Assembly: GCA_001430755.1 (NCBI GenBank)
Contig: CP013062.1
Span: 720,001 to 752,000, forward strand
DNA: 32,000 nucleotides
Reading direction: 5' to 3'
DNA from: Candidatus Peribacter riflensis
Lineage (GTDB): Bacteria; Patescibacteriota; Gracilibacteria; Peribacterales; Peribacteraceae
Below, piece by piece: positions 1 to 24,451 of this stretch. The first letter of the stretch is position 1. The number at the start of each line of letters is the position of its first letter. The position numbers were made by a program, and so were the translations under genes. Below the pieces are notes generated by a model. It searched no databases and was not told the origin of the DNA. It saw only the letters and a list, made by a program, of their open reading frames with translations.

Positions 1-1765
1 TCTGGAACTCGTCGACGTAGAAGTAGAAATCCGGACGATGTTCCTCCTCCACGTTCGCCCTGCTCATGGCGGCCTGATACATCTTGGTGATGATCATGGA
101 ACCGATGAGCGAGGAATTCTCTTCGCCCAGAAGCCCCTTCGAGACCTTCATGAGCAGAATTTTCTTGTTATCCATGACATCGCGGATATCGAATTGGGCC
201 GTGGGCTGGCCGATGATATTGCGGATCATGTTCGTGGCCACGAACTGGCCCACCTTGTTGAGGAGGGGCGTGATGGCTTCGGAATCGAACTTCTCGCTCC
301 ACGCGGCGAATTCCGAAACCCAGAAGCTCTTCACCACGTTATCCTGGATGCGCGCCACGATCTTCTGGCGGTAGTTCTTGTCATTGAGCATCTTGAGGAT
401 CGAGAGCACCGTGGTATTGGGACTATCGAGGAGCGCCAGCGTGGTGTAGCGGAGCACGTGCTCCAGACGGTAGGTCCAGTTGTCGCCGAAGAGCTTTTTG
501 AAGATGTCGAGGAACCCGATGGTGAGCTGCATCTTGTAGGCCTCATCCACCTTCGCGAGCGGATTGAAGGCGATGGGGAACTCGGTATCACCCGGGTCGA
601 AGAGGATCACATCCTCAATGCGGCTCTTGGGCACGTGCTTGAGCACGCAGTCGACTAGATCGCCGTGCGGATCGAGCACTGCCACTCCCCTGCCGCGCTC
701 CAGATCCTCCTTGATGAGGAGCTCGAGGAGCTTTGATTTGCCCACACCGGATTTGCCGACCACGTACAGATGACGCCGGCGGTCTTCGAGGCGCACGCCG
801 AATTTCACGAAGTTGTTGTGATAGTTCGTGATGCCGAAGGTGCTCACATCCTTCTCGCCGGACCGGGGCAGATCCTGCGGCGGATCCGATTTGCGCGCGA
901 GCACGTGGACGATGTGATGCACATAATCCGCATTCGGCAGATGGAAGAGCGTGGCGACCTCCGCAGCGCTCAGGATGTAGGCGGTTGCATGCTGTCGTTC
1001 GCGGTACCGACGAAGAAACGATGCCACATTGATGTCTTTGGAGGAGACAAACCCGTTGATGTCCGAATCATTGAAGTGATAGAAGCTGTTCTTCACTGCT
1101 TCGAGCTTGCGACTGGCCTCCTCCTCGCTCTTACTCAAGTACGCGCAGCGGATGGATACACGAAAAGGCTTCGTCTGCTCCTTCTGCTTGGCCGCCTCAT
1201 AGCGAACGGACTGAATACCTTTGCGACCCTCCTTGCGCAACCGATCGCGCACGGAGAAGTACTTCTTCAGGTTCGCGAACTTGAACCGCCAGCTCCGACG
1301 GAAGTGGTAGAGAGCATCGTCGGCATGCGGCTCCACGACGATCTGTACCCAGACCTGCTCGCCGCTGTCGATCTTCGAGAGCACTGAGAAGAGGCGTGAC
1401 ATCGAGTCCTCCTCGAACTTGTCATACATCTTGATCGGGTACACATCTCTCTCTTTGAGTGTGAGCTCACACCCGGCAAGGTGATGCTTCTCTGGATGCA
1501 GCATCTCCGTGTAATCCTTGGTCTCGCGGATCTCGGCATCGGGGAACGAAGCGTAGATGAGACCCTCGATCGTCTCTTTGTACTTCTCACCCATGACCAC
1601 GTAGAAGTACGTGTACTGCTCGTAGCCGAAGTACTCGAACGAGAAGCGCTCCTCGGTGACGGTGTTGCGCAAACTGACGAGCAGATCCTGGAATTTGGAT
1701 TCCAGTTTCCTGTTCTCCTTCTTCCCCTGGGGGACCACGATGTGGAGGTAGCGGAGATTGGCCAT
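1..1765 (-). CDS. VirD4/TraD/TraG-family (T4SS coupling-protein-like) P-loop ATPase; 3' end runs off the window
   Basis: Missing from the ORF track because it is open at the window edge. My translation from ATG at 1765..1763 (MANLRYLHIVVPQGKK...) stays open down to nt 1. Walker A GKSGVGKS sits in RRRHLYVVGKSGVGKSKLLELLI...AVLDPHGDL (about nt 735-760). A Walker-B-like FYFYVDEFQ lies at nt 1-28. Plus-strand ORFs 38..658 and 770..1387 are its antisense shadows. Confidence 0.8.
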   Translation of the reverse strand, partial: MANLRYLHIVVPQGKKENRKLESKFQDLLVSLRNTVTEERFSFEYFGYEQYTYFYVVMGEKYKETIEGLIYASFPDAEIRETKDYTEMLHPEKHHLAGCELTLKERDVYPIKMYDKFEEDSMSRLFSVLSKIDSGEQVWVQIVVEPHADDALYHFRRSWRFKFANLKKYFSVRDRLRKEGRKGIQSVRYEAAKQKEQTKPFRVSIRCAYLSKSEEEASRKLEAVKNSFYHFNDSDINGFVSSKDINVASFLRRYRERQHATAYILSAAEVATLFHLPNADYVHHIVHVLARKSDPPQDLPRSGEKDVSTFGITNYHNNFVKFGVRLEDRRRHLYVVGKSGVGKSKLLELLIKEDLERGRGVAVLDPHGDLVDCVLKHVPKSRIEDVILFDPGDTEFPIAFNPLAKVDEAYKMQLTIGFLDIFKKLFGDNWTYRLEHVLRYTTLALLDSPNTTVLSILKMLNDKNYRQKIVARIQDNVVKSFWVSEFAAWSEKFDSEAITPLLNKVGQFVATNMIRNIIGQPTAQFDIRDVMDNKKILLMKVSKGLLGEENSSLIGSMIITKMYQAAMSRANVEEEHRPDFYFYVDEFQ

Positions 1766-1817: not shown

Positions 1818-3512
1818 TCAGTAGACCTCTTTTAAGTAGCAATTTTCGCAATAAACCTTCTCCGGTTTGTCTGGCGGGTAGGTCGTCTCAATGGGTTTCT
1901 GGCACTTCATGCATTCCCGCTTCCAGAGCTTGCGGGGATTTCTGAGTGCAAGACGACGGTCGTAGCGCTCGTCGGGATGGAGCCGCGGCAGCGGAAGTTT
2001 CTGTCTCCGGTAGAAATCCAGCTCCTGTTTGAGAATCCGGAAAGGACGATGGGTGACGGGGCAGACAATCGCCCAGTTGATGACATCATCGGGAATGTCG
2101 TCTATGGAATCGGGCAGGCTGCCCGCGGGGATCGTTTTCTTCACTTCAGGATTCTTCTCCACGATCTTCCTCCAGTGGAAACCCCGCTCCTTCGCCTCGC
2201 GCTCGGTGAGCGGCATGTACTCGTGTGCCAGCGATTCGTTGTACCCGAATGGTGAGTATTGCGGCGGAAAGTAGAGTCCCCATTCCCCTCCCTTCTGCAT
2301 GTGTTCAATGATTTTTGGAACAAGCTGCTCGTACTCCTCTTTCGCATACTGCTTGTTGAAGATGCAGTACTGCTTGCGCTGCAGCCCCACGCACCCGAAA
2401 CAATCCTTGCAGTGGAAGCAGTACTCGCAGTAGAGCAGATTTTGGCTGTGGAAGACGAAAAGGCAGTAGGCCGTATTGTACGTCTCGATCGTTCCGAGGG
2501 TCTCGTACGCAAGCTCCGGCTTGATGTACATGTTCGAGCAGTCGTAATTATCCTTCACCTGCACTCCCACCGTCACGTACCGGCTGTCCTGGCTCTCATT
2601 CACGTCGTAGCAATCCTGGCAATGTTTGGAATTCTCGATGAAATCGCCCGTGCAGTGCTCGCTGTTCACGATGTTGGCATACCGATGGACCATCTTTTGC
2701 GCCATCTCCATCCACTGTTTCCGCATTGCCTCCATCTTTGCGAACGATCCATGCAACTCCCGGATTTTTCTCTCGTATTCTTCCTTGGAGAGCGGCTCAT
2801 TGAGAAAGTGATACTGCTTCTGGCGGAGATTGGAACAGAGGCAACAATTGCTGCATCCGCTCAAATTTGAGGAAAAGAAACAGTCGCTGCAATTCGTGGA
2901 GAAGGAAACGAAGGAGCAGTTGTAGGACTTGAAGACGCTGAAGCACTCGTAGCAGAGTTCGGAATTATACAAATAGGAACAGTCCACGCTGCTCTTACAG
3001 CTCTGCAGGAGTTTTCCGTAGTAGCAATCCTCGCAGTACTCCGAGGAATTGATGAGATAGCAGTTCCTGCAGTAGCCCGTGCCGGCGGTGTAATCGCAAT
3101 TTTCGTTCCCGATGACCATCGAGCCGAGGCGCGGAACAGCTTTGTGCAACTCGCCAAATTGCACGAAGAACGGACGGGAAAAATCAAAAGGACGACCGTG
3201 CTCCATAAAATCCCTGCCTTCAGCATTCCACTCCTCGTGCGTGTACACGGCATCCGGCGGCCCCCAAAGAGGCTCCTGATGATAGATGGAGACCATGTCC
3301 TTGCCCGTCAGGGTCGCCGTCCTGCGGTAGAAATTGCGCTCGTTCCTGTGGCACGTGCGGATCTTGAGACGGCAATCGGGGCAGTAGACGGGGAGCGGAG
3401 GATGGACCTTCGTTGCACCGAATGTGAATGTCATCTTGCACAGAAACTCCTCCTCATCGGGATGAACCGTGAAGGGTTGCTTGCACCAGGGATTGCGGCA
3501 TAGCTGTTGCAT
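1818..3512 (-). CDS. Cysteine-rich zinc-ribbon ladder protein, paralog 1 of 7 (no recognised family)
   Basis: 564-aa ORF with an ATG start (MQQLCRNPWCKQPF). It has an N-terminal CxxC...CPDC ribbon and two Cys ladders capped by CLCSNLRQKQYHFLNEPLSKEEY and CFGCVGLQRKQYCIFNKQYAKEEY. The C-terminus reads CMKC...YCENCYLKEVY. My hand count gives about 38 Cys. Homologous end to end with six other ORFs here. Confidence 0.92.
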   Translation of the reverse strand: MQQLCRNPWCKQPFTVHPDEEEFLCKMTFTFGATKVHPPLPVYCPDCRLKIRTCHRNERNFYRRTATLTGKDMVSIYHQEPLWGPPDAVYTHEEWNAEGRDFMEHGRPFDFSRPFFVQFGELHKAVPRLGSMVIGNENCDYTAGTGYCRNCYLINSSEYCEDCYYGKLLQSCKSSVDCSYLYNSELCYECFSVFKSYNCSFVSFSTNCSDCFFSSNLSGCSNCCLCSNLRQKQYHFLNEPLSKEEYERKIRELHGSFAKMEAMRKQWMEMAQKMVHRYANIVNSEHCTGDFIENSKHCQDCYDVNESQDSRYVTVGVQVKDNYDCSNMYIKPELAYETLGTIETYNTAYCLFVFHSQNLLYCEYCFHCKDCFGCVGLQRKQYCIFNKQYAKEEYEQLVPKIIEHMQKGGEWGLYFPPQYSPFGYNESLAHEYMPLTEREAKERGFHWRKIVEKNPEVKKTIPAGSLPDSIDDIPDDVINWAIVCPVTHRPFRILKQELDFYRRQKLPLPRLHPDERYDRRLALRNPRKLWKRECMKCQKPIETTYPPDKPEKVYCENCYLKEVY

Positions 3513-3532
3513 AGAATGCTAGTGTAGTTAAT

Positions 3533-3593
3533 TTTGTCATGGTGAGCACTGCCTGCCCGGCCGAGCCGTTCGGACGGGTCGAACCATGACAAA
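3533..3593. repeat. Intergenic hairpin module between paralogs 2 and 1
   Basis: A perfect 10-bp inverted repeat, tttgtcatgg (3533-3542) / ccatgacaaa (3584-3593), encloses a GC-rich self-pairing 41-nt core. It shares the blocks ttgtcatggtgagc, gtcgaacca and atgacaaac in the same order with 7915-7985. Confidence 0.7.
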
Positions 3594-3597
3594 CATA

Positions 3598-5247
3598 CTA
3601 ATAGACCTCTTTTAAGTAACACTCCTCGCAGTACACGATCTCCGGCCGCTCGGGCGCATACGTTGTTTCCATGGGTTTCTGGCATTTCATGCAATTGCGG
3701 CTCCAGAGACGGCGCGGATTGCGGCGCCAAATCCGCTCCAGATGGCGCTCGTCGAAGCACGCGCGGGGCAGCGGCAGGTGATGCTGACGGTAGAGAGCGA
3801 GCTCCTGCGGGATGATCTTGTAGGGCTTACCTGTGCGCTCGCAGGTGAGGATCTGCTCCGTGATGTCATCGGGAACGTCTTGGATATCAACAGGAAGAGA
3901 GAGGCGCGGCCCCTGGTAAGCGGATGTCTGGCTCTCGGTGTCCTCGCGCCACTTCCAGCCACGCTTGGCCGTATCATTCTTCGTGAGCGGAAAGTACTCC
4001 TGTGCCACGGTCTCGTTGTAGCCGAAAGGCGAGAGTTCCGCCGGAAGCGGCTGGCCCCACTCCCCTGTTTTCTTCATGTGCTCCACGATCTTCGCCTTCA
4101 GGCGCACGTACTCCTCTTCGGAGTACTGCTTGTTGAAGATGCAGAAGCGCTTCTTTTTCAGCCCCGAGCAGGCGAAGCAGTCCTCGCAGTACTGGCAGTG
4201 ATCCAGATATTGTGAATTCTTGGAGTAGAAGCTCACGAAGGTGAACTGGGTGTTATACTGGTTGATCGTAGAGATGGTCCCGTACGTCAGTTCGCAGCGA
4301 TCCACGACCACGTGACCGTCATAACAATCCTTCGACTTGAAGCTGAAGATCAGGTAGCCGCAATCCTCCAGATCCGCGCTGTCGTAGCACTCCACACAGT
4401 TCCTGCAGTGCACGATGTGGTCGCCCGTCACGTTCTCATTGCCGTTGCCGTCGATATACTGGTGGATCTGCTGCTTTCCGGCCTTCTTAAGAAAGACATC
4501 GCGGGCCGACGAGAGCGTGCGCATATTGCCCGTGTTGAGCTCACTGAGCTTCTTTGCGTACTCCTCTTTGGAATGCTGCTCATTGAAGATGCAATACTGC
4601 TTGTTCCGGAGCCCGAAACAACCGAAACAGTTGTGGCAACCCTTGCAGTCACTGAGGAAGAAGCTGTCACGGCAATTGTGCGACTTCTCGGAGTGGGCGA
4701 GGTTGTAGGACTCCGAGCAATCCACACACTCGATGCAGAGCTCGCACTTGAAGCAGTTCAGGCACTCGATGCAGCTTAAGCAACTGTCGATGCCATAGGA
4801 GTACAGGCAGTCCTCGTCGTGGTCCGAGACGAAGATCATGTGACAGTTCTTGTCCTGCTGCGCACCGTTCGTGTAATCACTGTTCACATTGTTGGAGGTA
4901 AAGACCGAGATCTTCGGCGTGACCTTCATGAGGGCATCGAACTGGGGGGAAAAAGGCCGGTTGAAATCGAAGTCACGACCATGTTCCATGGCATCCCATT
5001 TGTCGGTGTACCACTCGTGCTGATCGTAAACTTTGTAGGGACTGTCCGGCGCATAGACTGAAATGATCTGCTTGCCCGTGAGGTCGCACTTGCGGTGATA
5101 GAGTCGACGCTCGTTGCGCCACGCAAAACGCTCTTGGCGCCGGCACGTGGGGCAGAGAGTCGGATCAGGCAGTGAAACCTTCGTGAGGAATGAATGCTCC
5201 TGCGGCAAGACGGTGAAGGCCGATCGGCAGCGACGGCAGGTGCTCAT
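3598..5247 (-). CDS. Cysteine-rich zinc-ribbon ladder protein, paralog 2 of 7
   Basis: 549-aa ORF with an ATG start (MSTCRRCRSAF). Caps are CFGCFGLRNKQYCIFNEQHSKEEY and CFACSGLKKKRFCIFNKQYSEEEY. The C-terminus is CMKCQKPMETTYAPERPEIVYCEECYLKEVY. Confidence 0.92.
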   Translation of the reverse strand: MSTCRRCRSAFTVLPQEHSFLTKVSLPDPTLCPTCRRQERFAWRNERRLYHRKCDLTGKQIISVYAPDSPYKVYDQHEWYTDKWDAMEHGRDFDFNRPFSPQFDALMKVTPKISVFTSNNVNSDYTNGAQQDKNCHMIFVSDHDEDCLYSYGIDSCLSCIECLNCFKCELCIECVDCSESYNLAHSEKSHNCRDSFFLSDCKGCHNCFGCFGLRNKQYCIFNEQHSKEEYAKKLSELNTGNMRTLSSARDVFLKKAGKQQIHQYIDGNGNENVTGDHIVHCRNCVECYDSADLEDCGYLIFSFKSKDCYDGHVVVDRCELTYGTISTINQYNTQFTFVSFYSKNSQYLDHCQYCEDCFACSGLKKKRFCIFNKQYSEEEYVRLKAKIVEHMKKTGEWGQPLPAELSPFGYNETVAQEYFPLTKNDTAKRGWKWREDTESQTSAYQGPRLSLPVDIQDVPDDITEQILTCERTGKPYKIIPQELALYRQHHLPLPRACFDERHLERIWRRNPRRLWSRNCMKCQKPMETTYAPERPEIVYCEECYLKEVY

Positions 5248-5280
5248 ACGTGAGTAGAATTATTGAAAAAATGTGTACTG

Positions 5281-5309
5281 ATATTAAATATCACCTGTTA
5301 TTCAGTCAA
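5281..5309 (-). promoter_or_regulatory. Sigma70-like promoter for the paralog 2 / paralog 1 (and possibly ATPase) transcription unit
   Basis: The minus strand reads TTGACT (5309-5304), a 17-nt spacer, then TAATAT (5286-5281). It lies about 34 nt upstream of the ATG at 5247, inside a 156-bp AT-rich divergent intergenic region. Confidence 0.5.
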
Positions 5310-5347
5310 TACAATGAATTGCATAATGACGATATTTATATCTATAT

Positions 5348-5375
5348 TTGATTTATTGGCTCTTTCTCGTATATA
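5348..5375 (+). promoter_or_regulatory. Candidate promoter for the divergent TrmB-like regulator
   Basis: TTGATT (5348-5353), a 16-nt spacer, then TATATA (5370-5375). The ATG is at 5404. Confidence 0.35.
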
Positions 5376-5387
5376 CTATCTGTAGTA
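5374..5387. promoter_or_regulatory. Palindrome TACTA-N4-TAGTA, a candidate operator
   Basis: tacta (5374-5378), tctg, tagta (5383-5387) form a perfect inverted repeat between the candidate -10 and the regulator ATG. Confidence 0.3.
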
Positions 5388-5403
5388 ATATAATTACAAC
5401 AAG

Positions 5404-6165
5404 ATGGTCATCGCAGAACTTCAGGCACTCGGCTTACAACTGGAAGAAGCGAAGGTCTACTACGCGCTCCTGCAGCTCGGTGGTTCCTATGTGAGCGCGA
5501 TTGCGCGCAAGGCAGGCGTGCACCGCGTCGTCTGCTACAAGATTCTGGATGAGCTGGTTGCGAAAGGTTTGGTGAGTTCATTTCTGAAAAACGGGATCCG
5601 ACACTTCGCCATCGAGAGCCCTCTGATCCTCGTCCGCAAAGAGCAAGAGAAGCTCGAACGCGCCGAGAAGCTTCTGCCTGAACTGCTCTCAATCACCAAC
5701 GCACTCGCCTATAAGCCAAAGATCCAGTACTACGAGGGGCTGGAAGGCATGAAGAACATCTTCGAGGAAACACTCACGGCCAAGGGCGAATTACTCGGCT
5801 ACACGAATCTGGAAGACATCCCCAAAGTCATGCCAGAGGACTTTCTGCGTGACTATGCAAAGCGCAAAATCGCGAAAGGACTTAAGACGCGCATGCTCTC
5901 GCCCCATACGCCGCGGGCACTCAAGTATCTGGAAAAGTATTACCCGAGAGGATTTGATCCGAATCTGGTCGAAATCCTCTTCGTGAACCCGCGCGAATTC
6001 CACTTCGAGTACGAAATCACGATCTACGGCGAGAAGGTGGCGATCCTCTCGCTCAATCCGGAGGAACGCATGGGGCTGATCATCGAGAGTCCGATCTACG
6101 CGCGCACGCAGCGTGCGGTTTTTCAGTTGGCGTGGCTCGGAGCCACGAGCTTCGTGGCGAAGTAG
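5404..6165 (+). CDS. TrmB-family winged-helix transcriptional regulator (copy 1)
   Basis: 253 aa. The N-terminus LGLQLEEAKVYYALLQLGGSYVSAIARKAGVHRVVCYKILDELVAKGLV matches the TrmB wHTH pattern. The C-terminal domain is TrmB-like (YYEGLEGMKNIF...IYGEKVAILS). It is divergent from paralog 2 and convergent with paralog 3. Confidence 0.85.
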   Translation: MVIAELQALGLQLEEAKVYYALLQLGGSYVSAIARKAGVHRVVCYKILDELVAKGLVSSFLKNGIRHFAIESPLILVRKEQEKLERAEKLLPELLSITNALAYKPKIQYYEGLEGMKNIFEETLTAKGELLGYTNLEDIPKVMPEDFLRDYAKRKIAKGLKTRMLSPHTPRALKYLEKYYPRGFDPNLVEILFVNPREFHFEYEITIYGEKVAILSLNPEERMGLIIESPIYARTQRAVFQLAWLGATSFVAK

Positions 6166-6179
6166 CAGCAAGTTTTGGT

Positions 6180-6204
6180 AGCCGTGGTTCTTAGAACCCC
6201 GGCT
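6180..6204. terminator. Hairpin between convergent genes (possible bidirectional terminator)
   Basis: agccg-t-ggttc tta gaacc-c-cggct forms a 10-bp interrupted stem with a 3-nt loop. It sits between the stop of the regulator (6165) and the stop of paralog 3 (6212). Neither strand has a clear U-tract. Confidence 0.4.
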
Positions 6205-6211
6205 GCGGGAC

Positions 6212-7894
6212 TCAATAGATCTCTTTCAAATAGCACTCCTCACAGTACACGATTTCGGGCCGCTCGGGAGCATACGTCGTTTCCATAGGTTTCTGGCACT
6301 TCATGCACGGTCGTTCCCAGATTGTCCGCGGATTCTTGAGTGCCATGATCCTTCGATGCCGCTCGTCGGGATGGAAGTGGGGAATCGGGAGTTTCATCTT
6401 TCGATAGAGGTCCAGCTCCTGTCTGATGATCCTGAAGGGACGGCCGGTGGCGTCGCACTTGATGGCCCAGTTCACGATGTCGTCGGGAACTTCATCAATG
6501 GAATCCGGCAGTTTGGATGCGGGAATCACCTTCGCAACCTTCGGCATCTCGTCGTTCTCCTCGCGCCATCGCCATCCCCTCTTCTCCGCATCCTGCTTTG
6601 TGAGAGGGAAGAAATCCTGGGCGACGGATTCGTTGTAGGCATAGGGACTATTTTTTATGGGGAAGAATTCACCGTATTCACCATCGTGCTTCATCCGCTC
6701 AATGATCTTCGGCACCAGCAGCTCATATTCCTCCTTCGTGCACTGTTTGTTGAGAATGCAATACTGGCCGCGCGTGTGCAGTCCGTCGCATCCGAAACTG
6801 TCGGATTGGTAGAAGCAGGAGCTTAAGTAAAGGGAACGCGGGGAGGAGATGGTACAGTAGCAGAAACGCGTCAGATAGCTCTTTTCGCCGCCCGAAGACA
6901 TCTCGTAACAGAGCTCGATATCCTTGTCGTGCGAGGTCAAGTCCATGGAATCCTTTATGCCTTCGCACTCAAAGAGATATTTGGAGTCCTCAATGTTGAA
7001 ACAGTCGGAGCAGTGGATGGCATTGCGGCAATTGGCGAGGTACGCACCCGTGGATCCTTCGCAGTTGAGCTGGATTTGAGAGCGCTTGGGGACGGTCACG
7101 TCGAAGGCAGCAAACTCCTGCAGAAGATCATCCGGAGAAACAGACTGATAGCGCCGGAGGATCTCTTCGAACGCTTCTTTCGTCCTCTGCTCGTTCTTGA
7201 AACAGTACTGCCGGTTATGGATGCCGCTGCACATGAAGCAGTCTTTCACGCCCGAACAATCCCTCAGGTAACTACTGGAGGAACACTGGCGGCAATTCAC
7301 GAGGTGGTGCGCGCCGAAGCAGCCGTCGCAATTGGTACTATCCGCAGTCAGCTCGCAGCAGTTGAGTACATTGGAGTTGGCGCAATCTTTGCAGTACTGG
7401 CTCTTGCGGAGGTAGTAGCAGTCTTCGACGAAGTAGCTCCCCGGACACAGGTAGGCGTTCTTGCTGAAGGCAAGCAGAAGATTAAACTCGCAGTTTTCAT
7501 TGTTGAGTTGAAGAGCAGCGGCCTGCGGCACCCTGTGCTGCAGTTCCTCGAATTGAGCAAAGAAGGGACGGCTCAAGTCGAACTCCTGCCCGTACTGCAG
7601 AGGATCCCAGCGGTCTGACCACCAGCAATCCGTGCAATACACCGGAAAAGGAACATCGGGACCAAAAGAGGAAATGGTCATCTTCTGGCAGAGATCGCAC
7701 ACTCTCCGGTAGAGACAGTGTTCATTGCGGAAAGTCTGCCTGCGCTGCATCCGGCACTCCGGACACAGAGTCGGCGACGGAATCAGCTCCTTTTTGCCTG
7801 CATAGACCGGAGAAATCTCTTCGTAGAACTGGAGATCACTGTCGGTGATCTCGAAGGGCTGCTTGCACCACGTGTTTTTGCAGGTCTTCTGCAT
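6212..7894 (-). CDS. Cysteine-rich zinc-ribbon ladder protein, paralog 3 of 7
   Basis: The maximal ORF is 6212..7921 (569 aa, MTIVATLSLMQKTCKN...). I prefer the second Met at 7894 (MQKTCKNTWCKQPFEI). This aligns with the starts of paralogs 1 and 4. The 27 nt upstream are homologous to the out-of-frame 5' leader of paralog 1 (ccatgacaa...ctacact...ATGCA). Confidence 0.9.
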   Translation of the reverse strand: MQKTCKNTWCKQPFEITDSDLQFYEEISPVYAGKKELIPSPTLCPECRMQRRQTFRNEHCLYRRVCDLCQKMTISSFGPDVPFPVYCTDCWWSDRWDPLQYGQEFDLSRPFFAQFEELQHRVPQAAALQLNNENCEFNLLLAFSKNAYLCPGSYFVEDCYYLRKSQYCKDCANSNVLNCCELTADSTNCDGCFGAHHLVNCRQCSSSSYLRDCSGVKDCFMCSGIHNRQYCFKNEQRTKEAFEEILRRYQSVSPDDLLQEFAAFDVTVPKRSQIQLNCEGSTGAYLANCRNAIHCSDCFNIEDSKYLFECEGIKDSMDLTSHDKDIELCYEMSSGGEKSYLTRFCYCTISSPRSLYLSSCFYQSDSFGCDGLHTRGQYCILNKQCTKEEYELLVPKIIERMKHDGEYGEFFPIKNSPYAYNESVAQDFFPLTKQDAEKRGWRWREENDEMPKVAKVIPASKLPDSIDEVPDDIVNWAIKCDATGRPFRIIRQELDLYRKMKLPIPHFHPDERHRRIMALKNPRTIWERPCMKCQKPMETTYAPERPEIVYCEECYLKEIY

Positions 7895-7914
7895 CAACGA
7901 AAGTGTAGCAACAA

Positions 7915-7983
7915 TTGTCATGGTGAGCTCTGTCGAACCAGGACAATTCCAATGTCATCCTTCGACAGGGCTCAGGATGACAA
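7915..7983. repeat. Intergenic hairpin module between paralogs 4 and 3
   Basis: ttgtcatggtgagctctgtcgaa (7915-7937) pairs with ttcgacagggctcaggatgacaa (7961-7983) at 20 of 23 positions. An alternative perfect 7-bp hairpin is gtcatcc (7954-7960) / ggatgac (7975-7981). The module is homologous to 3533-3593. Confidence 0.65.
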
Positions 7984-7988
7984 ACGCG

Positions 7989-9680
7989 CTAATAGACCTC
8001 TTGTAAGTAACACTCCTCACAGTACACGATCTCCGGTCTTTCCGGCGCGTACGTGGTTTCGACAGGCTTCCGACACTTCATGCAGCTGCGGCTCCAGAGG
8101 CGGCGGGGATTACGAAGCGCCATGCGCTGACGGTGGCGTTCATCGGGATGGAAGTGCGGGACGGGAAGCTTCATCCTGCGATACAGATCCAGCTCCTGCC
8201 TCACGATCTTGAACGGACGTCCCGTTGCCTCGCAGGTGACCGCCCAGTTGAGAATGTCATCGGGAACATCGTCGATGGAGGCCGGCAGTTTCTCAGCCGG
8301 AATCGTCCTGCTTACCGAAAGCTGCTCCTGCTTCTCTTCCTTCCACGGAAATCCCCTCTTTCGGGCTTCGGACGGCGTGAGCGGGAAGAACATGTGCGCC
8401 GTCGTCTCGTTATAGGCGAACGGAGCGACACCAGCCGGAAAGAACTCACCCCACTCACCGTTCTTCCTCATGAGCTCGATCACCCGGGGGACAAGCTCCC
8501 CGTATTCCTTCTGCGTGTACTGCCTGTTGAGCACGCAGTACCTGCCGGGCTTCATACACACGCACCCGCACATGTCCGATCCTGTCTGAATGATGTCGCA
8601 GTAGAGCAGGTTCTTCGACCCCCATGACCCGTGTGTGAAGAGTGCGTTGTAGGAGCCGTACCCGAGGCTCAGGGAGTCGTACCCGAGCTCGGCATCCGTC
8701 GTGTGGCACACATCCATGAGGTCTTTGATCTGAAATCCCGTGAAGATGTAGGAGCAATCCTCTCCGTATGAGACATCGAAGCAGTGACGGATGTTCTTGG
8801 AATCCTTGAGGTAATCCCCCGTCACGTTGTCACAGCTCACCACCTCGCGCGCACGGTGGATACTCTGCTCTTTGAGGGCGGAAAACTCCCGCAGCACCTC
8901 CGCGAGTCCCCCGCCCGCCACGCGATCCATGATTTCCTTCTTCAGGCGCAGATATTCCTCCTGCGGATACTCCCGGTTGCGGATGACATTTCGCTTATTG
9001 CGCAGATTGGTGGAGAGCAGACACTCGGTGCAGCCTTTGCAATCGAAGAGGAAGGCGGAAGAGGAACAATTCGTGCAATTTTGTGAGAAGGAGAGCGAGT
9101 GGCACTTGTCGACATCGGTCACCTCGAAGCAGTAGTGCGATTCGGTGCAATCCACGGTGTCCACGCATCCGGTGGATTTGATGACCTGATACCCATACAG
9201 ACAATCCTCGTTAAATTCCGCAGCAAAGATCAGGTAGCAGTTCTTGTTACTGCCGGAGTGATTGATGAAATCGGAATTCTCGTTATTCACCACGTTGAGC
9301 GCCATGCGTGGCACGGCATTCTGGAGCTCTTTGACCTGAGCAAAGAACGGACGGTTAAAATCTACTGCGCGACCGTACGTGAGCGGATCGTTTTTGTCGG
9401 ACCACCAGCACTCCGTGCAGTAGACGGGAAACGCCGAACCGGCAGGGTACATCGAAATGATGGATTTCTTACATAGATCGCACGTCCTGCGATACAGACT
9501 GCGCTCGTTCCTCCAGAAAAGCCGGCGCTGCTGCCGGCAGTCGGGGCAGAGAGTCGGAGGAGGAATGGAAAATTTTTTGCCCCCGAAGACGGGAGAGAGC
9601 TTGTCGAGAAGGGCAAGGTCATCCTGCGTGACCTCGAAGGGAGTGCCGCACTGTGAACAGGACTTCTGCACGACCTCCAC
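7989..9680 (-). CDS. Cysteine-rich zinc-ribbon ladder protein, paralog 4 of 7
   Basis: 563-aa ORF whose first start is GTG at 9680 (VEVVQKSC). A second GTG at 9671 would give MQKSCSQCGTPFEV, matching the paralog 1 and 3 starts. The C-terminus is CMKCRKPVETTYAPERPEIVYCEECYLQEVY. Confidence 0.9.
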   Translation of the reverse strand: MEVVQKSCSQCGTPFEVTQDDLALLDKLSPVFGGKKFSIPPPTLCPDCRQQRRLFWRNERSLYRRTCDLCKKSIISMYPAGSAFPVYCTECWWSDKNDPLTYGRAVDFNRPFFAQVKELQNAVPRMALNVVNNENSDFINHSGSNKNCYLIFAAEFNEDCLYGYQVIKSTGCVDTVDCTESHYCFEVTDVDKCHSLSFSQNCTNCSSSAFLFDCKGCTECLLSTNLRNKRNVIRNREYPQEEYLRLKKEIMDRVAGGGLAEVLREFSALKEQSIHRAREVVSCDNVTGDYLKDSKNIRHCFDVSYGEDCSYIFTGFQIKDLMDVCHTTDAELGYDSLSLGYGSYNALFTHGSWGSKNLLYCDIIQTGSDMCGCVCMKPGRYCVLNRQYTQKEYGELVPRVIELMRKNGEWGEFFPAGVAPFAYNETTAHMFFPLTPSEARKRGFPWKEEKQEQLSVSRTIPAEKLPASIDDVPDDILNWAVTCEATGRPFKIVRQELDLYRRMKLPVPHFHPDERHRQRMALRNPRRLWSRSCMKCRKPVETTYAPERPEIVYCEECYLQEVY

Positions 9681-9797
9681 TGTAAGCGAGACGAGCGGAT
9701 GAGCAACTCAAAAGAGTCTTCATGGAGAAATGAGTGGAATAGGGCTCCAGTAAGCCATTTTCAGAGATCGGATATTCTCAGATTCCTGTGAAGATCT

Positions 9798-10598
9798 TTA
9801 CGCTCCGACGCCATTCCCCCACATCCGCTCGAACTGGTCGCGGTAGAGCGCAACCATTTCGGGATGCCGGATGATGACCACCCGTGGATGCTCCTGATCG
9901 CAGATAAAGTGGCGGACATGATCTTTGGTGTACCCCAGGTAATCCCTTGCAACGGGGATCGTGTCTACAAGGCGTGTGGTTCGCAGCTCCTTACTGTCAC
10001 GTTTGGCAAATGTTTCGGATTCGGGGGAATGTGTGTTGAAAACGCGGCAGAACATGTTCCGGCTGAAACGCTTGTGGCGGAACGCCAGCTCCTCGGGCGC
10101 TTCGTCGGACATGCCGGCGATATTCCAGTAATTCTGCATCGATCCCATGCACAGAAACTCATCATCGCAAAAATCGGGAATTTTGAGGTACTCTTCCCGG
10201 AACGCATCCAACCCTTCGCGCACCTCGATCATTTCCCCATCCGTGTTACGGACATCAGCAGATTCCATGCGATCCAGAAACGGCAGGAACCGGTCGAGAT
10301 CCTGCAATGCAAGCTGCACGCGACGAAGTACACGTTGCTCGGTACCAAGTTTTTGAATGAGACCCTTCAGCGTGAGCGGTGCGTACACCGATTGCTTGCG
10401 GTTCACCTTGAGCGCCTGCACCAGTCCCCGATCCTCAAGACGCTTCATGGTCCGGTAGGCCGTCATCACATTGATTCCGCTCCCGCCGATCAGCTTCGGC
10501 ATGGCCGCGCGCTTGTGCTTGAGGAGCTCAAGGTACAGGGTCACCTCCTCTTCACGGAGGCCAGAGAGCCGTAGCAGATCCTGGAGTCTTCGGCGCAT
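9798..10598 (-). CDS. TrmB-family winged-helix transcriptional regulator (copy 2)
   Basis: 266 aa with an ATG start. LSGLREEEVTLYLELLKHKRAAMPKLIGGSGINVMTAYRTMKRLEDRGLV matches the TrmB wHTH pattern. It is co-directional with the array and sits between paralogs 5 and 4. Confidence 0.8.
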   Translation of the reverse strand: MRRRLQDLLRLSGLREEEVTLYLELLKHKRAAMPKLIGGSGINVMTAYRTMKRLEDRGLVQALKVNRKQSVYAPLTLKGLIQKLGTEQRVLRRVQLALQDLDRFLPFLDRMESADVRNTDGEMIEVREGLDAFREEYLKIPDFCDDEFLCMGSMQNYWNIAGMSDEAPEELAFRHKRFSRNMFCRVFNTHSPESETFAKRDSKELRTTRLVDTIPVARDYLGYTKDHVRHFICDQEHPRVVIIRHPEMVALYRDQFERMWGNGVGA

Positions 10599-10641
10599 GG
10601 GGAAAGTATAGAAGACGGAAAGAGGATGTAAAGTTAAGTTG

Positions 10642-12294
10642 TCAATACACCTCCTTCAAGTAGCACGCCTCGCACAAAATCCTCCCGTCATACTCCTTGG
10701 GCCAGCTCGTCTGCGTTTCTTTCTTACACTTCCCGCACGCCATTGTCCGGAGCTCGCCATTGAAGGGAATCAGGCGGAAATTCTCCTGCAATCTTCGCAT
10801 GTAGTACGTATACGGAAGCGGAACCTTCAAATCCTGCGCGAAAACCACATCCTCTTGAAGAATTTGGAAGGGACGACCGGCAACCGGATCCCAGTAGGGC
10901 GACGTGGTCACGGATTCATCTGCATGATCACTGCGATCGGGGACTTCGGAGGCATCCCGCGTGTCCGACTCACGGTGCTCTTCCCTCTCGCGCATCCGAA
11001 ACCCTCTCTTCTTCCCCTCTGCGGTCATCATCGGCCAGACGAAACCTGCCAGACTCTCTTCGTAAGGATTTGCTGCAAAGTGTGGCGGAAAAAATTGGCC
11101 GTATTCACCCGTCTTCTTCATTGCCGCAATCACTTCTGCCTTTTTTCGCTCGAATTCCTTGGGTTCATAGGGCTTGTTAAAAATGTGATATTCCTTTCCC
11201 ACGAGCCCGCAGCAACCGAAGCAGTGCTTGCATTGGAAACACTGCGCGCAGTACTCCATATACTTGCACTGCATGACGTTGTAGCCGAATTTCACGTCAT
11301 AGCATTTGTCCTGCGGCTCGGTCGATCCGTACACGAGTTCCGATCCTACGGCGGCACACACGGTATCCAGGCAATCCTTGCCGCCGAATCCGCGAAACAC
11401 ATGCATACAATCCTCCAGTTCGTCGACGAAGAAGCAGTTCGTACATCCCTTGCTTGAGTAGATGTAATTGGAATCGCCACACTCCTGGCACTGATCCATG
11501 AAGATAGCGCGGTGCCAGGCATTCTCTTTCAGCATCTTCCCGAATTCCTTCTTCGCGTGCTCATAGACGGCGCGCGACCGCAGATCCCAGGACTCAAGAC
11601 GCTTCTTATATTCCTCCTTCGTCAGCTGCTGATTGGCGAAGCAGTACGACTTGTTGCGAAGATTGGTGCAGAAGAAACAGTGATTACAGTTGCGGCAGTC
11701 GTAGAGGAACGCGCTCTCCGTACACTGCCAGCAATTCAGCGTGAACACGGAGCGAAAACACAGATGACTGTTGATGAGGTCAACGGAACGTTCACTATCG
11801 TAGGAGAAGACACCGAATTGGCTGTTCTTCACGTTAAAGACCCGGTAGCAGTAACGAAGATCTTCGTCGTTCAGTCCTGAGTGGCAGAGATAGCAGTTCT
11901 TGCTGTACCACCAGTCATCCGTGTACTCACAATTCTCATTGCCCGTCCCCACATTGTGCGCAATGGGGCAGCACCGGAAAAGCTCCCACATCTGCGGGAA
12001 AATCGGCTTGGTGAGATCGACCTCCGCGGAAGGTGGATCGGCATGCTTGATCCACTCATCCTTGTGCCACACGGGGTAGGGACAGTCCTGCGAAAAGACA
12101 GAAACGATCTGCTTACCGGTCTTATCACATTTCCGTTTGTGCAGCGCCCAGTGCTGCCAGAAAGCGCCGAGGATCTGCCAACGCGCAATCGGGTGGAGAG
12201 AGGGCTCACCCTCAATACCAAGCTTCTTTCTAAGCTCCATCTCGGCAGGAGCCACCTCGAATGTTTTGCCGGTGACGGGGCAGATTTTCGGCAT
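10642..12294 (-). CDS. Cysteine-rich zinc-ribbon ladder protein, paralog 5 of 7 (most divergent)
   Basis: 550 aa with an ATG start (MPKICPVTGKTFEV). It keeps the caps (CFFCTNLRNKSYCFANQQLTKEEY, CFGCCGLVGKEYHIFNKPYEPKEF) and the C-terminus CGKC...ILCEACYLKEVY. The N-terminal CPxC knuckle is lost (LHPIARWQ). Confidence 0.9.
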   Translation of the reverse strand: MPKICPVTGKTFEVAPAEMELRKKLGIEGEPSLHPIARWQILGAFWQHWALHKRKCDKTGKQIVSVFSQDCPYPVWHKDEWIKHADPPSAEVDLTKPIFPQMWELFRCCPIAHNVGTGNENCEYTDDWWYSKNCYLCHSGLNDEDLRYCYRVFNVKNSQFGVFSYDSERSVDLINSHLCFRSVFTLNCWQCTESAFLYDCRNCNHCFFCTNLRNKSYCFANQQLTKEEYKKRLESWDLRSRAVYEHAKKEFGKMLKENAWHRAIFMDQCQECGDSNYIYSSKGCTNCFFVDELEDCMHVFRGFGGKDCLDTVCAAVGSELVYGSTEPQDKCYDVKFGYNVMQCKYMEYCAQCFQCKHCFGCCGLVGKEYHIFNKPYEPKEFERKKAEVIAAMKKTGEYGQFFPPHFAANPYEESLAGFVWPMMTAEGKKRGFRMREREEHRESDTRDASEVPDRSDHADESVTTSPYWDPVAGRPFQILQEDVVFAQDLKVPLPYTYYMRRLQENFRLIPFNGELRTMACGKCKKETQTSWPKEYDGRILCEACYLKEVY

Positions 12295-12386
12295 GGAATA
12301 TGTGTTTAGTATACCTATTTCTTTTAATGGTGTTTGGGAGAATGAAGCAGTACGAATTATGAATAATGCATGGTCGAAGCACCTTC

Positions 12387-12414
12387 ATTCTTAATTCTTA
12401 ATTCTTTATTCTCC
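12387..12414. repeat. Heptamer tandem repeat (ATTCTTA x4, degenerating)
   Basis: attctta attctta attcttt attctcc abuts the TAA stop of paralog 6 (12415-12417). It is preceded by ccttcat (12382-12388). Confidence 0.8.
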
Positions 12415-14112
12415 TTAATAGACTTCCTTCAGGTAGCACTCCTCGCACAACACGGTTTCCTTGCGCTCAGGCGAGAACGTGGACTCCATTGCCTTGCCGC
12501 ACGCGGAGCACGGCCGATTCCAGAGCCGGCGGGGAGGACGCAATGCTGTTCTTCGATCCTGCCGCTCCTCCGGATGCAGGTGCGGGAGCGGGAGATCATG
12601 CACACGGTAGAACGCGAGCTCCTGCTTCACGATGCGGAAGGGGCGGCCGGATACTGCGGATGTCACCGCCCAGTTCAGGATATCATCGGCCTTCGCCAAG
12701 GCTACGGCCGACGAGTCGGGAATTTCCGCGATTGTTTCCGGTAATTTCGCCGCGGCGATGACTTTTTGCACGTCCGGCTTCTCATCCGATTCATCGCGCC
12801 ACGGATAGCCGCGCTTGAGAGCCTCATCTTTGCTTAGAGGGAAGTACTCCATGGCAATCGACTCGTTGTAGGCAAAGGAACTCATGCTCTTGGGGAAGAA
12901 TTCCCCGTACTCTCCGGCTTTCTTCATATGAGCGATGAGTTTTTCGCGCAGTTTCTCGTACTCATCTTTCGTGTACTGCGTATTCAGAATGCAATACTGC
13001 TTCTTCTTCAGGCCCACGCAGCCGAAGCAATTTTTGCATCCCGTACAGCTGTCCAAATATTCGCAATCGCTCATATTCGTCGTGCACATGGTCGAGAATT
13101 TCAGATTGTAGACGTTGTTGCCGCATGCACCGCACTGGTACGCACGCTCCACATTATCGCCCCAGAAGGTGTAATCCATGGAAGACTTCACCCCCATGGA
13201 AACCCGCTGACAGTAGCGGCAATCCTCCAGATCCTTACAGTCCATGCAATAGAAGGCATTGCGGGTGTTACTGATGTGATCGCCCGTCGAGTGCTCATTG
13301 TGCTCGCCCTGCACGTAGCGCTGCGGCTGGGCGCGGAAGAATTCCGTCACGTTCTTTCTCACCATGGCGATGCCGGAGGAGGTATCGAGCCTGAGGGTCG
13401 TTTTCCGCTTCTCGTATTCCTCTTTCGTGAGCTGTTCATTCAGGATCATGAACCGTTTCTGGCGCTGATTGGCGCAAGCGATGCAGTCACGGCATCCGAT
13501 ACAACTTTTGAGGAAGTAACTGTCCGAACAATTGTGACAGTCCTGTGAAAAAAACAGGCTGTGACAATCGATGCAATCCAAACACTCGTAGAGAATTTCA
13601 CTCTTATGACAATTGAAGCAATCCACCATGTCCTTGCAGTGGTAGACACGGTTTGAGTAGAGACAATCCTCAACGTAATCCGCTTCCGCGATCAGGTAAC
13701 AGTTTTTGGAATACCCCGCATTGTTCACATAGTCGCTGTTCACCATCGTCCCCTGAATCACGAAACGCGCCTGATGAGGAACGCGATTCCTGAGCTCCAT
13801 GAATTGTTCAAAGAACGGACGGGAAAAATCGATGTCCTGCCCGTACGTGAGCGCGTCCCAGCCATCACCCCACCACGCTTCGGGGCTAAAGACCGGAAAG
13901 GGATGATCGGCGTGAAACTGCGACAGAATCCGCTCCCCCGTGAGGTCGCACGTTCTCCAGTAAAGCTTGCGGGAATTGCGCTCGAGCAGGCGCCGCCGGA
14001 GCCGGCACTCGGGACACGATTGAGGAGCGGGAACTTCAAAATCATCCAAAAACCTCTGATCATCCGAAGAAATTTCGAAACTCGAGCCGCATTCGACGCA
14101 CTTTCCAAGCAT
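12415..14112 (-). CDS. Cysteine-rich zinc-ribbon ladder protein, paralog 6 of 7
   Basis: 565 aa with an ATG start (MLGKCVECGSSFEI). Caps are CIACANQRQKRFMILNEQLTKEEY and CFGCVGLKKKQYCILNTQYTKDEY. The C-terminus is CSACGKAMESTFSPERKETVLCEECYLKEVY. Its start lies only 3 nt downstream of the paralog 7 stop. Confidence 0.92.
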   Translation of the reverse strand: MLGKCVECGSSFEISSDDQRFLDDFEVPAPQSCPECRLRRRLLERNSRKLYWRTCDLTGERILSQFHADHPFPVFSPEAWWGDGWDALTYGQDIDFSRPFFEQFMELRNRVPHQARFVIQGTMVNSDYVNNAGYSKNCYLIAEADYVEDCLYSNRVYHCKDMVDCFNCHKSEILYECLDCIDCHSLFFSQDCHNCSDSYFLKSCIGCRDCIACANQRQKRFMILNEQLTKEEYEKRKTTLRLDTSSGIAMVRKNVTEFFRAQPQRYVQGEHNEHSTGDHISNTRNAFYCMDCKDLEDCRYCQRVSMGVKSSMDYTFWGDNVERAYQCGACGNNVYNLKFSTMCTTNMSDCEYLDSCTGCKNCFGCVGLKKKQYCILNTQYTKDEYEKLREKLIAHMKKAGEYGEFFPKSMSSFAYNESIAMEYFPLSKDEALKRGYPWRDESDEKPDVQKVIAAAKLPETIAEIPDSSAVALAKADDILNWAVTSAVSGRPFRIVKQELAFYRVHDLPLPHLHPEERQDRRTALRPPRRLWNRPCSACGKAMESTFSPERKETVLCEECYLKEVY

Positions 14113-14115
14113 CGA

Positions 14116-15804: not shown

Positions 15805-15829
15805 AGAAGGCAGAGTAGCAGAATCCCGG

Positions 15830-16366
15830 CTAGGCGCCCGTCGTGTTCTTAATGACCTGATTCGCCGCAAAGGTCATGGAGAGGTACGGCTGCGCAGCCG
15901 GCGTGAATTGCGCATGCTGGTGCAGGTTCTGCTGTTGCCAGAGCCTGGTCACTTCAGAGCAGTCCATCGCCCCATCGTAGCCGTTCTCTTTGTTCTGGAC
16001 GACGCCGTTCTTGAGGAGCTTGAATGTCCAGTGCAGGTGCGGGCCGGTGGAGCTGCCGGTATTGCCGCTCAACGCGACCGGATCGCCCTGCGAGATGGGC
16101 TGCCCGTTCTTCACGGTGACCTGTGAGCAGTGGGCAAGGACGCTGCGGCGCGTGGGGCCGTCGATGACCACGTACTTGCCGTAGCCTGTCGCCCCGTCAT
16201 CCTTCACCGTTACAACACCGTCATGCGGCGCGAAGATCTTCGTGTCCTCGGGCACACCGAAATCGAACCCGTTGTGACCGAGCCAGCCGTACTGCTGGTA
16301 GATCTCTTTATTCTGACCGAAACCCTGCGTGACGGTGGGCGTACCGGGGAGCGGAGAGAAAATCAC
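15830..16366 (-). CDS. M23 (LytM-type) metallopeptidase, no signal peptide seen
   Basis: 178 aa with a GTG start. The M23 signatures HNGFDF (HxxxD) and SGNTGSSTGPHLHW (HxH) are both present. It lies immediately upstream of paralog 7. Confidence 0.85.
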   Translation of the reverse strand: MIFSPLPGTPTVTQGFGQNKEIYQQYGWLGHNGFDFGVPEDTKIFAPHDGVVTVKDDGATGYGKYVVIDGPTRRSVLAHCSQVTVKNGQPISQGDPVALSGNTGSSTGPHLHWTFKLLKNGVVQNKENGYDGAMDCSEVTRLWQQQNLHQHAQFTPAAQPYLSMTFAANQVIKNTTGA

Positions 16367-16780: not shown

Positions 16781-16975
16781 CCCGCTCTTCCTGCCGTTTT
16801 CCTGTGACCAGTGGAGTGATGACATAGCCCACACAGGGTAGCGAGAAATACGCACTTGTCTACTGCGAAGACCATCTTCGTGGAAGCATCGGTTGGTAGC
16901 AACCATGCAGGAAAGGCTCACAGAGCGCAAATACTGACATAAGATGCCAGAGGTCAGGAAGGTCATACCCCCTCC

Positions 16976-22586: not shown

Positions 22587-22670
22587 GAGGCGCGATCCTA
22601 CCATAGAACAGGATGAAAATCGCGCGATTTTCCACCCGTGCGTGCGCGGATCGCGGTAGAATGCGGACCC

Positions 22671-24419: not shown

Positions 24420-24429
24420 AAGGAAACAG

Positions 24430-24451
24430 AGGAGGCAGAGGATGCAAAGGA
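24430..24451. repeat. Left arm of the 22-nt inverted repeat flanking dnaX
   Basis: aggaggcagaggatgcaaagga. The reverse complement of 26090-26111 is aggaggcagaggaagcaaagga, matching at 21 of 22 positions. Confidence 0.8.

Follow-up and report, generated by a model that had tools for sequence, protein, structure and literature searches.

Homologous zinc-finger modules and a proposed pseudo-two-fold packing in an arrayed protein family of Patescibacteria

The gene at positions 6212-7894 (minus strand) of a 32,000-nucleotide stretch of the Candidatus Peribacter riflensis genome (assembly GCA_001430755.1, contig CP013062.1, positions 720,001 to 752,000; "the window" hereafter means this whole stretch) encodes a protein of 560 amino acids (aa) plus stop, 100% identical to a "hypothetical protein" of this organism at NCBI. 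It is the third of seven same-strand paralogs of 549-584 aa that fill 1818-15870 (-), the others being 30-48% identical to it. We find in it the domain order ZnA-M1-M2-L-ZnB: a predicted zinc-finger module at either end, ZnA and ZnB, two solenoid units, M1 and M2, and a linker, L. The explanation we favor, and consider likely taken as a whole, is that the molecule is pseudo-two-fold, each terminal module clamping the solenoid unit that lies farther from it in sequence; that the inner zinc sites have been lost repeatedly; and that the paralogs would be partners of an ATPase encoded at the array end, a last element that is far more tentative than the rest. The open reading frame (ORF) mechanically reaches 7921, and the methionine at 7894 (M10) is the start backed by homologues. 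The parts of paralog 3 are as follows.

ZnA finger 1, 7715-7894 (-): aa 1-60; predicted Cys4 site, intact in paralog 3
ZnA finger 2, 7595-7714 (-): aa 61-100; CDLC-x17-CTDC; weak match to Pfam zf_Tbcl_2
M1, 7145-7594 (-): aa 101-250; helix, solenoid, cap helix; acidic overall; candidate ZnB docking patch at about aa 170-188
M2, 6695-7144 (-): aa 251-400; homologous repeat of M1; candidate ZnA docking patch at about aa 315-331
L, 6470-6694 (-): aa 401-475; acidic linker with conserved GEYGEFFP...YNE
ZnB, 6215-6469 (-): aa 476-560; ZnA homologue; finger 1 degenerate (CDAT...HPDE), finger 2 intact (CMKC-x17-CEEC)
CDAT, 6446-6457 (-): aa 480-483; occupies the partner CxxC knuckle position, lost along with CPxC
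HPDE, 6362-6373 (-): aa 508-511; occupies the CPxC knuckle position

Terminal modules and central units form two homologous pairs

A first-pass annotation of this gene had proposed that the two ends of the protein carry homologous modules around a duplicated ladder core and a linker. Its motifs all stand where it placed them, in paralog 3 CKNTWC, CPEC, CDLC and CTDC in the N module and CDAT, HPDE, CMKC and CEEC in the C module, and its order of module A, ladder 1, ladder 2, linker and module B agrees with the profile comparisons given below. When the first 130 residues of each protein were locally aligned with its last 110, the similarity exceeded that of plain shuffles by z = 14-21 in paralogs 2, 3, 4 and 7, 9.4 in paralog 6 and 5 in paralog 1. 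With Cys positions held fixed in the shuffles, a Cys-rich control set beforehand as the refutation test, z was 11.4 in paralog 3, 8-15 in paralogs 2, 4, 6 and 7 and 4.1 in paralog 1, and with all Cys masked it was 9-18. The same relationship had been asserted for every paralog, and this holds for paralogs 1, 2, 4, 6 and 7 but not for paralog 5, whose own N and C modules show no significant similarity under the shuffle controls.

Profiles built on an alignment of 81 homologues carry the point across the family. The N and C modules match with a probability of 99.8% over 77 columns (E = 1.3e-28), and so do the corresponding fingers, finger 1 with its counterpart at E = 4e-20 and finger 2 with its own at E = 1.5e-13. 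M1 matches M2 (E = 1e-29 over 137 columns), a repeat detectable in each of the seven paralogs alone (z = 7-20). No other pair of segments was significant by profile-profile comparison, and L has no homologous counterpart elsewhere in the protein. We also considered whether the two fingers within one module are homologues of each other and rejected this, finger 1 against finger 2 not being significant. These comparisons show that ZnA and ZnB (about 85 aa) are homologous, each built of two different fingers, and that M1 is likewise homologous to M2, at about 140 aa apiece. Composition or convergence of Cys-rich metal-binding segments, in place of homology, is ruled out by the Cys-fixed and Cys-masked controls and deserves almost no credence: both ends are Cys- and Arg-rich, CxxC recurs by chance in such sequences and the two ends of paralog 5 lack significant mutual similarity, but order is kept over the 77 matched columns, each finger matches its counterpart only, and the N module of paralog 5 aligns with the C module of paralog 1 at a score of 92.

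Covariation supports a pseudo-two-fold molecule

How do the two pairs pack? Mean-field direct-coupling analysis of 499 family sequences (effective number about 453, 546 columns) yielded five couplings between ZnA and M2 (23-317, 24-318, 26-315, 26-328 and 51-331) and five between ZnB and M1 (496-172, 497-173, 499-170, 499-182 and 515-185), and when N is mapped onto C and M1 onto M2 by homology, the two sets coincide pair for pair. Shifted maps give 0.07 coincident pairs on average, and none of 5000 shifts reaches five. Above a score of 0.7, four coincident pairs link ZnA:M2 with ZnB:M1 and none appear in any other mapping; at a score of 0.6, the control comparison of ZnA:M2 with ZnB:M2 gives none and that of ZnA:M1 with ZnB:M1 gives one. 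A sixth equivalence, 73-126 with 537-272, ties finger 2 to the helix that opens the neighboring unit. Homologous positions show almost no coupling with one another, so that an indirect artefact is excluded. The coupled pairs are also chemically sensible (K26-D315, K499-D170, R51-E331, F23-M317, F496-V172), and conserved Arg residues of the helices that follow knuckle 2 couple to acidic residues of the solenoid (R48-D318, R51-E331, R520-188).

These results support a molecule that is pseudo-two-fold, as the first-pass annotation had it, with ZnA on M2 and ZnB on M1, each module on the sequence-distal solenoid unit. Couplings between ZnA and ZnB are weaker, at ranks 98-290, and run without exception between the two Arg-rich helices, in an antiparallel pattern that suits a dyad (59-510, 46-524, 49-523); these helices probably meet antiparallel at the dyad. 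A smoothed correlation of the covariation maps failed to tell the two-fold model apart from its controls; the test for exactly coincident pairs did so. L couples to both ZnA and ZnB. In the mechanism we propose, the first-finger helices of ZnA would dock on M2 and those of ZnB on the homologous patch of M1, and the fingers would serve as structural clamps, holding both termini against the acidic core of a rigid molecule.

The charge distribution admits a different use of the same helices. ZnB carries a net charge of +6.7 and the helices after knuckle 2 about +5, set on a core of -4 to -6, a pattern in keeping with the Arg-to-acidic couplings, and ZnB is the most conserved segment of the protein, its finger 2 being nearly invariant family-wide. 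The proteins might therefore bind nucleic acid, or be type IV substrates, with the basic C-terminal module as binding surface or signal. Type IV substrates often carry basic C-terminal signals, and the ATPase encoded next to the array belongs to the VirD4/TraD/FtsK-HerA group. However, the covariation of conserved Arg with acidic solenoid residues suggests that the charge is used within the molecule, which weakens the case for the basic helices as DNA-binding surfaces. As for export, the ATPase shows no N-terminal hydrophobic stretch by eye and no virB4 genes lie nearby, most VirD4-like genes of Patescibacteria are distant from virB4 (PMC12102498), and proteins so tightly clamped by metal would make poor export substrates. 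On balance we consider nucleic-acid binding or export unlikely, and prefer to see in the basic helices the intramolecular contacts of a clamp.

The mirror order points to at least two events

The domain order is a mirror, A-B-B'-A', and not a tandem, A-B-A'-B'. The first-pass annotation had derived the protein from the duplication of an ancestral half-protein, and the observed order is at odds with this, because a single tandem duplication of such a half would give A-B-A'-B'; at least two separate events would be needed. The connections differ too: ZnA runs from its C-terminus through a short link into M1, and ZnB is attached by its N-terminus, through the 75-aa L, to M2. That one half-protein, a ribbon plus a ladder, was duplicated in tandem and fused is attractive insofar as finger module and solenoid unit are both duplicated and the two-fold packing is what a fused homodimer should show. 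Yet to reach the observed order a further step must be added, either a rearrangement or an independent source for one of the finger modules; L is without a counterpart, and no half-size relatives occur among the matches listed, all of which are about 520-600 aa. We regard a single duplication as rather improbable. One possible route to the mirror order is that the solenoid unit was duplicated and a second finger module was fused at the far end via L, where it would have bound the equivalent surface.

Zinc sites are lost as pairs of knuckles, and repeatedly

To follow the sites through the family, we aligned to the family profile 263 distinct full-length proteins, taken by a genome scan for the family from the ORFs of 82 related loci and the window. 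Knuckle states are counted below as both intact / first only / second only / both lost (n = 263).

N knuckles 1 and 2: 228/5/2/28
N knuckles 3 and 4: 90/1/0/172
C knuckles 1 and 2: 68/1/0/194
C knuckles 3 and 4: 259/1/0/3

Knuckle 1 thus goes with 2 and knuckle 3 with 4, which would give each protein at most four Cys4 sites, because the knuckles are lost together in these pairs and covary as these pairs: the top covariation pairs of the whole protein (69-90, 483-511, 69-87 and 10-47) are knuckle pairs. State changes counted on a rough neighbor-joining tree number at least 18, 24, 29 and 3 for sites N1, N2, C1 and C2, so the pairing does not reflect one inherited event. Many separate losses have affected the inner sites (ZnA site 2 and ZnB site 1); the outermost sites are retained, and the last, C2, is almost invariant (intact in 259-260 of the 263). 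The inner zinc sites would then be dispensable and repeatedly swapped for polar residues.

Each of the seven paralogs is listed below with a four-digit pattern of its site states, in the sequence N1, N2, C1, C2, where 1 stands for intact and 0 for lost.

Paralog 1, 1818-3512 (-): 564 aa; pattern 1001
Paralog 2, 3598-5247 (-): 549 aa; pattern 1001; C knuckle 2 reads CFDE
Paralog 3, 6212-7894 (-): 560 aa; pattern 1101
Paralog 4, 7989-9680 (-): 563 aa; pattern 1101, as paralog 3
Paralog 5, 10642-12294 (-): 550 aa; pattern 0001; last finger alone intact
Paralog 6, 12415-14112 (-): 565 aa; pattern 1001; C knuckle 2 reads HPEE
Paralog 7, 14116-15870 (-): ORF of 584 aa with a TTG start; pattern 1001

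Across the family the commonest patterns are distributed as follows.

1001: 111/263; paralogs 1, 2, 6 and 7
1101: 50/263; paralogs 3 and 4
1111: 34/263; none in the window
1011: 28/263; none in the window
0001: 22/263; paralog 5

These counts recast what the first-pass annotation had said of HPDE. HPDE does stand in place of CPxC in the C copies of paralogs 1, 3, 4 and 7, with HPEE in paralog 6, CFDE in paralog 2 and YYMR in paralog 5, and the N copy of paralog 5 has taken the degenerate form as described (CPVT...HPIA). What is gone, however, is a whole Cys4 site and not one metal knuckle. The loss is not systematic in the C copy either: none of the seven window paralogs keeps C site 1, but 26% of the 263 family proteins do, and 56 of 60 arrays mix different patterns. 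Nor is the N module an intact reference, its second site (ZnA finger 2) being kept in paralogs 3 and 4 and lost in the other five, as in 172 of the 263. We also tried and rejected the idea that HPDE is specific to Peribacteraceae: every site pattern is present in Peribacteria, Gracilibacteria, Altimarinota and unclassified Patescibacteria, and patterns mix within single arrays.

Where C site 1 is lost, knuckle 1 reads CxxT (124) or CxxS (48), so that its first Cys is kept in 172 of 194 proteins, and knuckle 2 reads HPDE (50), HPDQ (21), CPDQ (19) and similar motifs. Loss of N site 1 brings the same kind of replacement, Cxx[T/S] with CP[E/D]E. HPDE therefore reads as the stereotyped replaced state of a whole Cys4 site, since the partner CxxC turns into Cxx[T/S] together with CPxC. 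Such a state could in principle be a site remodelled for another metal, or a catalytic one, using Cys, His and Glu/Asp; its stereotypy and conservation, the retained first Cys and the independent appearance of Cxx[T/S] with CP[E/D]E in the N module would all suit that idea. Against it, in the replaced C site 1 Glu and Gln swap freely, as do His, Cys and Ser at the first position, unlike a conserved ligand set, paralogs 2 and 5 lack an HPDE-type motif altogether, and scans of family libraries returned no enzyme family. We think a remodelled site improbable; because these residues interchange so freely, the replacements more plausibly serve hydrogen bonding and helix capping in a site that would no longer bind metal.

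Predicted treble-clef-like fingers on a probable narrow solenoid

AlphaFold models of the full protein (predicted local distance difference test, pLDDT, 87.2; predicted template modelling score, pTM, 0.87) and of ZnA alone (pLDDT 93) place knuckles 1 and 3 in beta-hairpins, with a helix N-terminus carrying each of knuckles 2 and 4. In ZnA finger 1, CKNTWC (C5, C10) lies in a hairpin followed by a helix at 18-27, and CPEC (C44, C47) opens the Arg-rich helix 45-60; the remaining second ligand pairs are C87/C90 at helix 88-92, 508/511 at helix 509-518 and C551/C554 at helix 552-559. The modules had been called zinc ribbons, in which both ligand pairs come from hairpin knuckles; the models do not show this, since the second pair of each finger sits at a helix N-terminus. 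Because each finger combines a hairpin knuckle with a helix N-terminus, its geometry is predicted to be treble-clef-like: the modelled secondary structure fits a treble clef and the weakly matching Pfam families are so named, although Foldseek finds no significant solved finger.

The nearest of these families are zf_Tbcl_2 (PF23477), zf_Tbcl (PF13451) and TIGR04272, whose CxxC-x17-CxxC spacing recurs in finger 2 of both modules (C66/C69...C87/C90 and C530/C533...C551/C554 in paralog 3). The two zf_Tbcl families are annotated "probable treble clef zinc finger". Weak matches occur among the 81 homologues (zf_Tbcl_2 in 70, best E = 9.5e-8; zf_Tbcl in 43), and the curated cut-offs are not reached: paralog 3 scores 22.9 against 27 bits for zf_Tbcl_2, and the window proteins 15.9-21.9 against 36 bits for TIGR04272. 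These models span only about 35 of 560 residues, leaving finger 1, the solenoid units and the linker unmatched. LIM domains offer a second comparison. Like the family module, those of CRP1/CRP2 (PDB 1ctl, 1b8t) are small tandem modules of two fingers, and a search of PDB sequences with the family profile gave borderline matches to the second LIM finger only (E = 0.001-0.04, family finger 2 only), with C-x-K-C...(I/V)YC-x-x-CY-x-K in common. The LIM signature, C-x2-C-x16-23-H/C-x2-C-x2-C-x2-C-x16-21-C-x2-C/H/D, is not followed: family finger 1 has a 33-residue spacer with an extra helix, the gap between fingers is 18 residues rather than 2, and the Pfam LIM score stays at 18.5 against a cut-off of 22.9 bits, for finger 2 only.

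The core behaves as a narrow solenoid, with about 12 residues to the turn and small residues forming a ladder inside it, set in each unit between a helix and a cap helix. In M1 and M2, Cys or Ser recurs every third residue (autocorrelation 0.7-0.8; 62% Cys/Ser in the M1 phase), the ladder positions interchanging with Val, Leu and Asn, and the separation of covarying pairs within the units peaks sharply at 12 (38 of about 110 pairs). Written in rows of 12, the M1 consensus runs NCYLxFGSxxxE / DCYYxxxxxxCK / DCVDCxxxxxCE / LCYECxDCxxCY, and on. No Pfam family covers the M1/M2 region. Left-handed beta-helix enzymes (LpxA, PglD, gamma-carbonic anhydrase) share with the core its repetitiveness, short strands and inward ladder of small residues, and the weak Foldseek matches (E 0.05-1) are of this kind and no other. 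They have 18 residues per turn, however, against about 12 here with Cys/Ser every 3 residues, none of 81 homologues matched Hexapep, and Foldseek gave E of at least 0.047 and TM scores of at most 0.22.

The beetle antifreeze protein is a 12-residue Cys-ladder beta-helix and thus has the same repeat length as the family core; it is, to our knowledge, the only comparable case for a 12-residue coil. The family protein is presumably cytoplasmic because it has no evident signal peptide, and for that reason a disulphide ladder in the core is unlikely. A 12-residue coil is unusually tight for such a protein. The last M1 coil contains a run CxxCxxCxxC (213, 216, 219 and 222; 7229-7258, -, in paralog 3) whose positions are 81-95% Cys family-wide, with Val at 216 in paralog 3, and in M2 C369 and C379 are about 95% Cys across the family.

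A large family in gene arrays

A profile search of 1.84 billion cluster representatives (50% identity clusters) returned 5,936 at E <= 0.001 and 2,386 at E <= 1e-30, and nearly all of the 150 best cluster matches are 520-600 aa and match end to end. Source annotations of family proteins read "hypothetical protein" or "zinc-ribbon domain containing protein". The best genome matches come from Peribacteria/Peregrinibacteria, Gracilibacteria, Altimarinota and other Patescibacteria, with a few metagenome-assembled genomes labelled otherwise. The family is large and has been seen so far mainly in Patescibacteria. Searches of Pfam, NCBIfam, PADLOC and PHROGs gave no core model and no defence-system or phage family for the protein, phage genomes gave no tblastn match, and a literature search on DUF8128, CxxC-x17-CxxC, candidate phyla radiation coupling proteins with zinc ribbons, and Gracilibacteria/Peregrinibacteria found no description of the family. 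The predicted parts are of known kinds, treble-clef-type fingers and a beta-solenoid; in the literature searched, their arrangement, the family and its genomic association are undescribed.

Family genes are co-directional and stand in arrays of up to 11 copies. The largest array seen, on a Peribacteria contig (locus L007, 68-20600), has eleven consecutive family genes in 21 kb, and several other metagenome-assembled loci hold at least 7-9 copies each. Helix-turn-helix regulators of the TrmB family lie in or beside the arrays in 34 of the 82 loci. In the window, the array is accompanied by the following genes.

1-1765 (-): apparently soluble VirD4/TraD/HerA-like ATPase, first 588 aa, with N-terminal DUF8128; follows immediately on the downstream end of the array and is truncated at the window edge
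5404-6165 (+): TrmB-family regulator, inside the array
9798-10598 (-): second TrmB-family regulator, inside the array

A related assembly, GCA_003500185.1 (locus L005), holds a paralog 3 identical to the window copy. There the orthologue of paralog 7 is called at 562 aa, and the 584-aa ORF of the window, which overlaps the end of the upstream M23 peptidase gene (15830-16366, -), is therefore probably over-extended, the true start lying some 22 codons inside it. Paralog 6, one intact ORF of 565 aa in the window, has its counterpart at 3650-5480 of L005 called as two ORFs of 473 and 145 aa, a split that a frameshift, a pseudogene or an assembly error could explain.

An array-end ATPase as candidate partner

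The ATPase is about 750 aa long where the gene is complete (16130-18373 in L005). It exceeds library cut-offs for T4SS-DNA_transf (32.4 against 20.1 bits), TrwB_AAD_bind (23.6 against 20.5) and DUF87 (33.3 against 23.2) and has the Walker A motif GKSGVGKS, as expected of a VirD4/TraD-type P-loop ATPase; it also matches TraD and HerA models, with scores for NCBIfam TraD and VirD4 far below cut-off. Read by eye, its N-terminal 300 or so residues contain no hydrophobic stretch, and no type IV secretion system (T4SS) genes occur in the window or adjoin the ATPase in loci L001-L005, with no virB4 nearby. On this reading, and in these loci, it seems to lack both the membrane anchor and the linkage to virB4 or relaxase that mark a coupling protein. 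Of the 40 loci with a visible array end, 12 have the gene on the array strand with its start no more than 1.2 kb past that end. Arrays of Gracilibacteria, Altimarinota and other Patescibacteria also terminate in it, and distant full-length relatives include Bacillus phage G gp156 (22% identity, E = 8e-42) and phrog_5156.

A 2025 survey counted 5,713 VirD4-like homologues in Patescibacteria, 148 of them near virB4, and left open whether they have been co-opted for another role (PMC12102498). The window ATPase resembles the orphans among these in being of the T4SS-DNA_transf type and not beside virB4, and differs from the survey homologues in its apparent lack of an N-terminal hydrophobic stretch and in its DUF8128 N-terminal domain; the text of that survey contains neither the word "zinc" nor a passage on such a neighboring family. 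We speculate that the paralogs act as interchangeable adaptors or clients of the ATPase under TrmB control; their differences would lie chiefly on the surface of the solenoid, given that no segment of the protein is less conserved than M2. That they are interchangeable partners of this ATPase is a tentative proposal, possible but doubtful on present evidence. Still more speculative is its extension, by which the arrays would be the missing partners of thousands of orphan VirD4-like ATPases of Patescibacteria in a hitherto undescribed cytoplasmic ATPase-plus-adaptor system, every paralog offering its own solenoid surface, and switching of the inner sites to Cxx[T/S]/[H/C]PD[E/Q] would tune the clamp and not be plain decay.

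Other genes in the window

Upstream of the array, past the M23 peptidase gene, lie a weakly glutaredoxin-like protein of 189 aa (16397-16966, -) and an ArsP_1-family permease (16976-17971, -). Housekeeping genes occupy 21999-28104 (dCTP deaminase, dnaX, 5-formyltetrahydrofolate cyclo-ligase and serine hydroxymethyltransferase), together with a 593-aa ORF at 22638-24419 that has no Pfam match. A protein of 1061 aa (28101-31286, -) has a hydrophobic N-terminus resembling a signal peptide, nine stretches matching DUF4215 (Myxococcus-type cysteine-rich repeat), a Ser-rich spacer and a weak TIG match, and fits the large extracellular Cys-rich proteins described for Peribacteria (PMC4736985).

Weight of the evidence and implications

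Several points weigh against the model of a two-fold clamp with dispensable inner sites and an ATPase partner. Its packing rests on covariation at moderate precision (about 450 effective sequences for 546 columns), and the direct contact signal between ZnA and ZnB is weak, as its ranks indicate. Zinc binding is deduced from Cys patterns, the loss counts may be overstated by the roughness of the neighbor-joining tree, and the Cys run of M1 (213-222) could be a further metal site or only part of the internal ladder. Neither the whole protein nor the ZnA model had a significant Foldseek match in the PDB or among viral structures, which leaves the fold classes unconfirmed, and the ATPase is absent from 28 of the 40 visible array ends.

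In conclusion, a dark family of about 5,900 clusters gains a domain map and a testable model of its metal sites. For protein evolution it offers an example that combines a probable pseudo-two-fold packing, a mirror and non-tandem domain order, and parallel losses of zinc sites that end in the same few residues. The hosts are minimal-genome symbiotic bacteria, poorly able to afford redundant genes, and yet they carry up to 11 copies of the gene per locus. The recurrent ATPase at the array end is a concrete candidate partner for these proteins, one that bears on the role of the orphan coupling-protein homologues of Patescibacteria.

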